Shown here one piece after another: positions 60,624 through 61,192 of a DNA stretch of 64,000 nucleotides. Within the stretch, counting starts at the first letter, position 1; every line of letters starts with the position of its first letter. The notes under the pieces are model-generated. The model was not told the DNA's origin, made no database searches, and saw only the letters and a program-made list of their open reading frames with translations. The DNA is from Bacteroidota bacterium. Lineage in GTDB: Bacteria; Bacteroidota; Ignavibacteria; Ignavibacteriales; Melioribacteraceae. The stretch covers positions 12,488 to 76,487 of the forward strand of contig JAKAEE010000008.1 in the NCBI GenBank assembly GCA_021820065.1, written 5' to 3'. A program made the position numbers and the translations under genes.

Positions 60624-60698
60624 CGGGGTGTAGCGCAGCCCGGTTAGCGCGCTTCGTTCGGGACGAAGAGGTCGGGAGTTCGAATCTCCCCACCCCGA
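60624..60698 (+). tRNA. tRNA-Pro (anticodon CGG)
   Basis: Hand-folded: CGGGGTG/CACCCCG acceptor, GCGC/GCGC D stem, CTTCG-TTCGGGA-CGAAG anticodon arm, GGGAG-TTCGAAT-CTCCC T arm, discriminator A. No CCA. Confidence 0.9.
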
Positions 60699-60700
60699 CA

Positions 60701-60952
60701 ATGAGTTCTTTCTTTACATACATATTATTTAGTAACTCCAAAAACAAATTTTACGTTGGTAGTACTAATGATCTCCAACGCAGATTGTCTGAACACAATT
60801 CCAGACAAACGAAATCTACAAAATTTGGTGTCCCTTGGGAACTAATTTATTTTAAAGAATCTGATACTAAATCTAATGCTGCTCGTTTAGAATCTAAAAT
60901 CAAGAAAAGAGGAATTAAGCGTTATTTAACTGAACAGTCATTGTCCGGTTAG
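60701..60952 (+). CDS. Small GIY-YIG nuclease (YhbQ/UPF0213-like)
   Basis: 83 aa, MSSFFTYILFSNSKNKFYVGSTNDLQRRLSEHN..., with GIY-YIG core motifs. The ATG lies 2 nt after the tRNA-Pro discriminator. The track ORF start at 60617 is an artefact that runs through the tRNA. Confidence 0.85.
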   Translation: MSSFFTYILFSNSKNKFYVGSTNDLQRRLSEHNSRQTKSTKFGVPWELIYFKESDTKSNAARLESKIKKRGIKRYLTEQSLSG

Positions 60953-61003
60953 CGCGTGGCGCCTTTGGCGCCAAGGTCGGGAGTTCGAATCTCCCCACCC
61001 CGA
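60945..61003 (+). pseudogene. 5'-truncated tRNA-Pro-like copy (D-loop to 3' end) with a replaced anticodon arm
   Basis: CCGGTTAGCGCG plus a 17-nt palindrome TGGCGCCTTTGGCGCCA (replacing CTTCGTTCGGGACGAAG), then AGGTCGGGAGTTCGAATCTCCCCACCCCGA, identical to the tRNA. There is no 5' acceptor or D-stem strand upstream. Confidence 0.8.
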
Positions 61004-61192
61004 CAATGAGTTCTTTTTTTGGTATACGCAAATCCTTCCTAAATAACCTATATAAAAAGATTACTAATGTCAAAAATATCTAATGAAATCAAAAAAATTG
61101 AGCTAAAATTTCTTTTTACTAGCCTACATAATCTTTATTTTTTCGCTAAGACATAACTTTATTAATTAACTTTTAACATAAACAGGCAAAGC

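Follow-up and report, generated by a model that had tools for sequence, protein, structure and literature searches.

A 305-bp unit of a small GIY-YIG nuclease gene and a hairpin-patched tRNA-Pro copy as a probable selfish cassette of bacterial tRNA genes

Why should an intact tRNA gene be followed by a small nuclease gene and then by a broken copy of itself, in which one arm has been exchanged for a palindrome? The question was raised by positions 60,624 to 61,192 of a 64,000-nucleotide (nt) stretch of DNA (the window) from a Bacteroidota bacterium of the family Melioribacteraceae (contig JAKAEE010000008.1, here C92). The source genome is a 3.2-Mb metagenome-assembled genome (MAG) with 98% completeness, its closest named relatives being Melioribacter and Ignavibacteria MAGs. 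An earlier note, made from the letters of the window, had proposed that a selfish nuclease gene of small size travels with a tRNA gene or targets it. The tRNA association, the tRNA-derived repeats and the empty and occupied loci described below agree with that proposal, and we consider it probable that the 305-bp unit is a free-standing, homing-endonuclease-like selfish cassette within tRNA transcription units.

The order of tRNA-Pro(CGG) and, after 2 nt, a gene for an 83-amino-acid (aa) GIY-YIG protein, as first described, was agreed on by ARAGORN, Rfam and Pfam (Table 1). The stop codon TAG of the gene (60950-60952) fell within the duplicated D-loop GGTTAG, and its last codons overlapped a spare, 5'-truncated tRNA-Pro copy (60945-61005). 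Two blocks were repeated at an offset of 305 nt: the 12-mer CCGGTTAGCGCG was present exactly at 60640-60651 and 60945-60956, and the 43-mer that had been reported, also exact, belonged to a 47-mer with one mismatch at 60669-60715 and 60974-61020. Between these blocks, the 17-nt anticodon arm CTTCGTTCGGGACGAAG (60652-60668) was swapped in the spare copy for the equally long and perfect palindrome TGGCGCCTTTGGCGCCA (60957-60973), the sole hairpin of its type near any tRNA in the source genome. No tRNA was called by ARAGORN in the spare copy (60945-61005), and no match to the Rfam tRNA model was obtained there by Infernal at E <= 10; the T arm alone matched weakly with Infernal. The second copy is not a functional tRNA. 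The cassette sits between tRNA-Pro and the native 3' flank of the tRNA, on the same strand, and the partial duplicate keeps one tRNA copy whole. The tRNA-Pro sequence was unchanged between relatives with an occupied and with an empty site.

Beyond the spare copy, the duplicated start of the GIY-YIG gene, ATGAGTTCTTT, opened a 25-codon open reading frame (ORF) at 61006-61083 that was unsupported as a gene. The ORF described in the earlier note was found, with a start duplicate of 11-21 nt, and the decayed second GIY-YIG cassette that the note had read into this region was not: the alignment of 61017-61192 with the GIY-YIG gene reached a local score of 21, at the level of shuffled sequences (20.2 +/- 2.9; 199 of 500 shuffles equal or better), and the shared ACTAATG at a similar offset was due to chance. 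The duplicate at 61006-61027 is most simply read as the trace of a gene conversion or an unequal crossover from the tRNA/GIY junction. In alignment A3, the closest occupied relatives (G016 and G011) had the T loop of the spare copy split precisely between GTTC and GAATC by a 22-nt double hairpin, which was missing from the spare copy in the window. Because these relatives keep the double hairpin that was lost here, the 47-nt repeat of the window, which takes in the first 11 bases of the gene, is a derived state; a recent conversion from the tRNA/GIY junction may have erased the T-loop hairpin and so produced the repeat. Tandem amplification followed by deletion, one of the origins first suggested, is plausible, as tandem arrays were common in relatives and an 11-21 nt remnant of the gene start follows the pseudo-tRNA.

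The protein matched Pfam PF01541 with 65.4 bits against a curated cut-off of 22.6, and Y7, Y18, G20, R28, E31, H32 and E64 were invariant in the broad alignment A1. Its AlphaFold model had a predicted local distance difference test score of 92 and the topology E-E-H-E-H-H. By these profile and model data, the 83-aa protein is a member of the GIY-YIG superfamily. Searches of the PDB by sequence returned 1YWL (E = 4e-15), 1ZG2 (E = 8e-15) and SLX1 (E = 4e-7); the top Foldseek hits were 1ZG2 and Slx1 7CQ3 (TM 0.59-0.70; root-mean-square deviation 1.4 A at TM 0.70), with I-TevI and UvrC far weaker. Judged by both kinds of match, the protein is of the UPF0213/Slx1-like GIY-YIG branch. It consists of the catalytic domain only, ends just past the nuclease core and has no second domain. 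Slx1 proper was rejected, since the C-terminal RING/PHD zinc finger is absent from the 83 aa, and a DNA-binding module of the kind found in homing endonucleases such as I-TevI and the Seg proteins was likewise missing. The ORF was under purifying selection, with a ratio of nonsynonymous to synonymous changes (dN/dS) of 0.09-0.27.

GIY-YIG matches were found ten times in the source genome, at eight loci. A tRNA gene lay within 52 nt at five of the eight (Pro-CGG, Ala-GGC, Asn-GTT, Arg-CCT and Val-TAC); a random 250-bp segment falls within 100 nt of a tRNA with a chance of 0.0053, giving P = 2e-10 for five or more of eight. A sixth locus followed the transfer-messenger RNA (tmRNA) gene, one was cut by a contig end, with a tRNA 3' fragment after the gene, and another had no tRNA and carried repeated hairpin pairs on its flanks. 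Beyond the nuclease gene, the cassettes of the source genome carried a partial copy of their own neighbouring tRNA, in which GC-rich hairpins split the arms or took their place. The tRNA-Arg locus was mirrored: a 3'-truncated copy with a D-arm hairpin was followed by the nuclease gene and then by the intact tRNA. Hairpin-patched fragments without a nuclease gene were observed at Leu-CAG, Leu-CAA, Glu-CTC, Cys-GCA and Gly-CCC, and cognate fragments, as cassettes or as such scars, lay near about 13 of the 39 tRNA genes. Cassettes build tandem arrays and decay to nuclease-less hairpin scars.

Some loci of the source genome showed particular forms. On C85 (1200-2100), tRNA-Ala(GGC) was followed by two near-identical tandem GIY-YIG units with a spare tRNA-Ala between them, in which the anticodon arm was replaced by CCCCGATGAAATCGGGG and the T stem had compensatory changes (GGAG/CTCC to GCGG/CCGC). 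At tRNA-Val(TAC) on C131 (36450-37600), the ORF ran into a 24-nt tandem hairpin repeat (GTCGGGACACGTCCCTTAACAAAT, three copies) within the spare tRNA; a second nuclease copy, which was truncated, came next. Beside it lay the nuclease-less scar of tRNA-Gly(CCC), with the T-loop 22-nt double hairpin TTCCGAAGGAATGCCTTCGGCA in the orientation opposite to that in relative L021; this double hairpin was found in either orientation and in different tRNAs. A genome-wide dispersal of double hairpins was considered and rejected, since the source genome held one true copy, at the tRNA-Gly scar. Simple TCCCG...CGGGA hairpins numbered 105, and a tRNA or tmRNA gene lay no farther than 600 nt from 19 of these; the simple hairpins are not specific to the cassette, because many resemble ordinary terminators. 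Several short arrays of 25-nt tandem units, each with a TCCCGAT...ATCGGGA hairpin followed by CGCA, were seen on C75 (1600-15250). The locus without a tRNA, on C104 (17600-18200), carried a 100-aa GIY-YIG gene with the same pair of hairpins of about 27 nt on each side (GTCGTGCT...AGCACGAC and GTCGGGCC...GGCCGAC) and may be a tRNA-independent form of the element. On C128 (49039-49770), the tmRNA gene (tag GEYNYALAA) had a GIY-YIG paralogue some 105 nt downstream, and the same layout was found in two congeners.

The tRNA-Pro(CGG) loci of 40 relatives were compared with that of the window. Within the genus, the site was occupied in 7 genomes and empty in 8, on two synteny backgrounds, so that empty and occupied loci coexist in the comparison that the earlier note had suggested. 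Identity of the nuclease among occupied loci ranged from 60 to 100%; one relative (L030) had a solo scar at tRNA-Pro(CGG), and another had three tandem copies upstream of the tRNA. Alignment A3 showed that it is the spare copy, rather than the intact tRNA, which joins the downstream flank native to the empty site. The same palindrome as in the window stood in the place of the anticodon arm in relatives whose nuclease was just 60-87% identical, which agrees with the view of the exchange as a clean substitution and not a product of decay. Further loci came from searches with the Asn and Arg paralogues; congeners carried 0 to 10 copies, some of them pseudogenes with stop codons.

A scan of one genome per GTDB species was made with the tRNA-Pro subset A2 in place of the broad alignment A1. 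It gave 79 loci from Ignavibacteriota, Bacteroidota, Fidelibacterota, Elusimicrobiota, Chlorobiota and others, nearly all adjoining tRNA-Pro, a set biased toward tRNA-Pro cassettes because A2 was the query. Ignavibacteriota and Bacteroidota were the main groups in which the cassette was found, whereas Fidelibacterota, Elusimicrobiota and Chlorobiota and MAGs labelled Nitrospirota, Thermodesulfobacteriota and Pseudomonadota had one or a few copies; the nuclease clade spans at least five phyla. Among 158 distinct proteins, 111 were encoded within 120 nt of a tRNA, 33 at 120-700 nt in tandem arrays and 14 in stretches without a tRNA, and the tRNA was on the same strand for all 144 proteins (144/144) that had one in the stretch. 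The statistical association of GIY-YIG genes with tRNA 3' or 5' ends, on which the first proposal turned, was strong both in the source genome and in its relatives.

The spare copies followed common rules. A cognate copy was found on the far side of 95 of the 111 tRNA-adjacent cassettes. When the tRNA was upstream of the gene, the copy started in the D arm, and in 38 of 52 cases its end coincided with the tRNA 3' end; when the tRNA was downstream, it began at tRNA position 1 in 40 of 43. Interruptions were concentrated at the anticodon arm (positions 29-45) and in the T and D loops, 72 of 90 interruptions containing a hairpin, and the T-loop 9-mer was missing or split in 71 of 87 copies. The recurring hairpins had the stems TGGCGC(C)...(G)GCGCCA or TCCCGC...GCGGGA and variable loops. 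The stem of the window palindrome was present at tRNA positions 28/29-44/45 in 14 cassettes of Ignavibacteriota and Bacteroidota, one of them on tRNA-Ala; the exchange of the anticodon arm for a TGGCGCC stem, 17 nt for 17 nt, occurred in two phyla and in both geometries. In a Saprospiraceae MAG (L084, 297-1170), a nuclease of the tRNA-Pro clade lay on tRNA-Ala(TGC) in two tandem units, each with the terminator hairpin of the tRNA, and the anticodon arm of the spare tRNA-Ala was replaced by TGGCGCCAGAGGCGCCA. From its sequence, this locus looks like a switch of host tRNA from tRNA-Pro to tRNA-Ala in which the TGGCGCC palindrome was kept. Since a Pro-clade nuclease occurs on tRNA-Ala together with TGGCGCCAGAGGCGCCA, the hairpin type follows the lineage of the nuclease. 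In an Elusimicrobiaceae MAG (L079, 1380-2170), spare copies of tRNA-Pro(TGG) were nearly full length, with the T arm instead of the anticodon arm exchanged for TGGCGCTAAAAGCGCCA, again 17 nt for 17 nt; one was still called a tRNA by ARAGORN and is an annotation trap.

Protein lineages stay with one tRNA identity across phyla. On a FastTree phylogeny of 144 proteins, the amino-acid label of the tRNA changed 14 times, against a possible minimum of 10 and a mean of 55.7 (minimum 51) for shuffled labels, figures to be read with the shortness of the 83-aa proteins, a sampling seeded by three queries and the sharing of labels by related genomes in mind. Movement between species was indicated by the comparison with flanking genes. 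Between G016 and G011, the proportion of synonymous differences (pS) was 0.21 for the GIY gene, 0.71 for YajQ and 0.87 for OmpA, and conserved codons differed at the third position in 10/73 cases in the GIY gene versus 57/135 in the flanks (Fisher p = 2e-5). The source genome and G011 gave 19/68 for the cassette versus 63/132 for the flanks (p = 0.01). The cassette being far closer than its flanks in G011, these data indicate interspecies transfer into the same tRNA site, bounded by the tRNA on both sides. As is typical of free-standing homing genes, the cassette was present or absent at homologous loci and spread independently of its flanking genes.

The gap between the tRNA and the ATG leaves no space for a promoter of the cassette itself. 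A candidate Bacteroidota-type -7 box (pattern TAnnTTTG) was recognised upstream of tRNA-Pro, and the same box stood at an equal distance upstream of tRNA-Pro in L017, L020, L024 and L029 (TATCTTTG). It is the only promoter-like element open to the cassette, and its role as promoter is putative. A sigma-70 scan returned nothing on the + strand and a terminator consensus scan nothing relevant, neither scan covering Bacteroidota-type promoters, the probable type of the host. The GIY-YIG gene would be transcribed from the tRNA promoter, and 3' processing of the tRNA would free a nearly leaderless GIY-YIG mRNA. The last nuclease codons were complementary to the tRNA 3' end and the start-codon region (GACAATGAGTTC, window 60938-61013), through which the mRNA ends could pair; the pairing was not kept in the closest relatives. 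A stem of TCATTGTCCGG (60938-60948) with CCCGACAATGA (60999-61009, also 60694-60704), by which the pseudo-tRNA would be closed or the mRNA ends joined, was likewise rejected as a conserved feature because the pairing was absent in G016 and G011.

Table 1. Features of the tRNA-Pro(CGG)/GIY-YIG locus, in coordinates of the window
Feature	Position	Strand	Evidence
Candidate Bacteroidota-type -7 box TATGTTTG (TAnnTTTG) of the tRNA-Pro unit	60596..60603	+	Read from sequence
Intact inner functional tRNA-Pro(CGG)	60624..60699	+	ARAGORN tRNA-Pro(cgg); Rfam tRNA model 66.2 bits at 60624-60698
83-aa GIY-YIG nuclease gene	60701..60952	+	ATG 2 nt past the tRNA; Pfam PF01541 E=5.7e-18
Start of spare copy, D-loop/D-stem piece CCGGTTAGCGCG (tRNA positions 17-28)	60945..60956	+	Exact 12-nt repeat; alignment A3
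Palindrome TGGCGCCTTTGGCGCCA (7-bp stem, 3-nt loop) in place of the 17-nt anticodon arm	60957..60973	+	
Variable loop, T arm and acceptor 3' strand of spare copy	60974..61005	+	Within the 47-nt repeat; adjoins the native downstream flank
Duplicated start of the GIY-YIG gene, 11 (perhaps ~21) bases, ATGAGTTCTTT...	61006..61027	+	

We propose that the cassette spreads by breaking and repair of tRNA genes. The nuclease would break tRNA-gene DNA, an activity predicted by analogy with the phage nuclease SegB, which serves as the precedent. Recombinational repair would then copy the cassette into a cognate empty tRNA gene, with the intact tRNA as the homology arm on one side and the spare tRNA piece on the other. 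The hairpins may strip nuclease targets from the spare copy and so reduce self-cleavage, and they may also chop its homology into short tracts, which would hinder deletion of the cassette by recombination between the repeats.

Several observations weigh against this proposal. Any cut directed at tRNA genes would hit the host copy too, because the resident tRNA is identical to the tRNA of the empty site, and sequence-specific recognition of tRNA genes is doubtful because the 83-aa protein has no DNA-binding domain. The closest relatives of known structure are structure-specific nucleases (Slx1) or uncharacterised proteins (UPF0213) and not homing enzymes. The T loop was intact in 16 of 87 spare copies, that of the window included. 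Homing requires donor and recipient DNA together in one cell, and no match to the nuclease was found by tblastn in 50,697 phage records (E <= 1e-5) or in plasmid records; a pattern scan of IMG/VR viral contigs, which used two peptide patterns only and is weak evidence, gave no relative. Between the source genome and G016, its sister by the flanks, the cassette was as diverged as the flanks, which looks like vertical inheritance, and the limits of the tree named above apply to the fidelity of the lineages.

Some of these observations are what would be expected of a passive cassette, carried by ordinary homologous recombination after DNA uptake through the conserved tRNA flanks, with a nuclease that acts on branched DNA or R-loops, or in defence, and not on empty sites. 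The Slx1/UPF0213-like structure-specific fold without a DNA-binding domain fits such a role, as do the lack of a phage or plasmid vehicle in the records searched and a resident tRNA without any immunity-giving change; the outer boundary of the spare copy at the tRNA terminus is expected if the tRNA serves as a homology arm. Yet the nuclease gene would then be unexplained cargo at more than 140 sites, and neither tandem amplification, which is nuclease-dependent in SegB, nor the systematic hairpin patching of the spare copies would be accounted for, and we regard passive carriage as rather unlikely. Quite unlikely, in our view, is a domesticated host function, in which a small nuclease is co-transcribed with the tRNA and the hairpin-patched piece acts as a tRNA-like 3' or 5' untranslated region that stabilises, processes or regulates the mRNA. 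The purifying selection on the ORF would suit it, and so would a start codon 2-7 nt past the tRNA, a stop in the D loop or at the tRNA 5' end, the RNA fold of the pseudo-tRNA region (-37.7 kcal/mol, z = -4), hairpin pairing maintained by compensatory changes (alignment A3) and the vertical-looking divergence between the source genome and G016. A host gene would, however, hardly vary from 0 to 10 copies among congeners with its site empty in 8 genomes of the genus, form tandem arrays, stop-codon pseudogenes and solo scars, or be so much younger than the flanks in G011 and G016. In both of these relatives, the stem that closes the RNA fold was also not conserved.

The equal length of the exchanged anticodon arm preserves a tRNA-like geometry, the hairpin type tracks the nuclease lineage even on a different tRNA, and SegB is toxic when overexpressed; these points could be combined in an addiction module of the toxin-antitoxin kind, with a toxic nuclease restrained by an anticodon-less tRNA mimic made of RNA or DNA. 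We consider such a module very unlikely: the spare copies lack an acceptor stem and are variably truncated, the disrupted arm differs (D, anticodon or T), many nuclease-less scars persist and some nucleases have no detectable spare copy. Hardly credible is an origin by att duplication from a since-deleted integrase island, the att-like route offered in the earlier note, or an assembly artefact. Integrative elements do duplicate 3' parts of tRNA genes, but this unit of only 305 bp holds a GIY-YIG ORF and no integrase, and the second geometry duplicates the tRNA 5' part. The unit was moreover found at eight or more loci of the source genome and in independently assembled genomes of several phyla, which also speaks against an artefact.

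The selfish cassette within tRNA transcription units is the reading that we prefer. A bolder version of it makes the palindromes working partners of the nuclease: a Slx1-like structure-specific enzyme and a lineage-specific hairpin would form a two-part homing system. Stable hairpins written over the tRNA arms of the spare copy would provide immunity and block deletion, and expression would proceed by tRNA punctuation, that is, by RNase Z or RNase P processing. This version was suggested by the persistence of the TGGCGCC stem across phyla, geometries and the jump from tRNA-Pro to tRNA-Ala, and by the finding that different tRNAs carry the same 22-nt double hairpin in one or the other orientation. 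We hold it tentatively, and as a whole it is doubtful.

If the selfish reading is true, a very compact selfish element of about 300 bp resides at tRNA genes in many bacteria; it consists of an 83-residue nuclease without a promoter of its own and uses the tRNA as portable homology arms. It would explain the clusters of small "GIY-YIG family protein" genes that annotations show next to tRNAs, the presence of pseudo-tRNA fragments and GC-rich palindromes around tRNA genes (about one third of those in the source genome are affected), and how a nuclease without a DNA-binding domain stays tied to one class of target. It would also bear on whether the UPF0213/YhbQ family is linked to mobile DNA, and it offers a testable model for hairpin-based self-immunity and for leaderless mRNA expression punctuated by tRNA in bacteria. 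In practice, cassettes can break assemblies at tRNA loci and mislead the annotation of tRNAs and pseudogenes.

Four kinds of known systems were compared with the cassette. The UPF0213/COG2827 proteins (E. coli YhbQ, B. subtilis YazA; 1YWL, 1ZG2) and Slx1 share the URI/GIY-YIG core of about 80-100 aa, and YhbQ and YazA are reportedly counted among the Slx1 family (PMC7017083). Slx1 differs in its C-terminal zinc finger, its need for Slx4 and its action on branched DNA. No report of tRNA linkage or mobility of bacterial UPF0213 proteins was found in a full-text literature search. Elements that integrate into tRNA genes at att sites are similar in that a partial tRNA repeat bounds the insert and the tRNA stays intact, whereas the present cassette has no integrase, a 305-bp insert, a hairpin-interrupted repeat and a mirrored form with the tRNA 5' part.

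Mobile endonuclease ORFs of fungal mitochondria that enter an essential gene bring along a copy of the part that they displace, and the gene stays functional. GC-rich mobile double-hairpin elements have been described in Allomyces mitochondrial DNA (Paquin et al. 2000, as cited in PMC3787672). The likeness to the cassette consists of an endonuclease combined with a replacement gene end, and of GC-rich mobile double hairpins in the same genomes. The mitochondrial hosts are protein-coding organelle genes and the duplicate is translated, whereas the present cassette uses bacterial chromosomal tRNA genes and a duplicate that is a tRNA fragment. The mitochondrial ORFs and double hairpins are a parallel in design, likened to the cassette by architecture alone.

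The closest known system is SegB, a homing endonuclease from the tRNA gene cluster of phages T4/T6. Both are free-standing GIY-YIG genes among tRNA genes, present or absent at homologous loci, and the tandem units of tRNA and nuclease of SegB have their counterpart in the similar arrays common for the present cassette. SegB is a phage protein of about 220 aa with a DNA-binding part, whereas the present protein is chromosomal, has 83 aa and consists of the catalytic domain only. Membership of the SegB family was rejected, no homology being detectable by tblastn in the 50,697 phage records at E <= 1e-5. SegB showed no preference for a tRNA isotype, whereas the present lineages track tRNA identity, and no hairpin-patched partial tRNA copies have been described for SegB. 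SegB, whose recognition site is the 11-bp TpsiC box, cleaves tRNA genes at their 3' ends (PMC2330249); its nuclease activity together with recombination drives tandem amplification of tRNA and segB units, and its reported motif is RAWTSGAAC (PMC13096335). The survey in the 2026 SegB paper covers phage genomes alone. By our reading, RAWTSGAAC is the reverse complement of the T-loop box GTTCSAWTY that is split by the 22-nt hairpins in the spare copies of relatives. A full-text literature search returned no description of a tRNA/GIY-YIG hairpin cassette.

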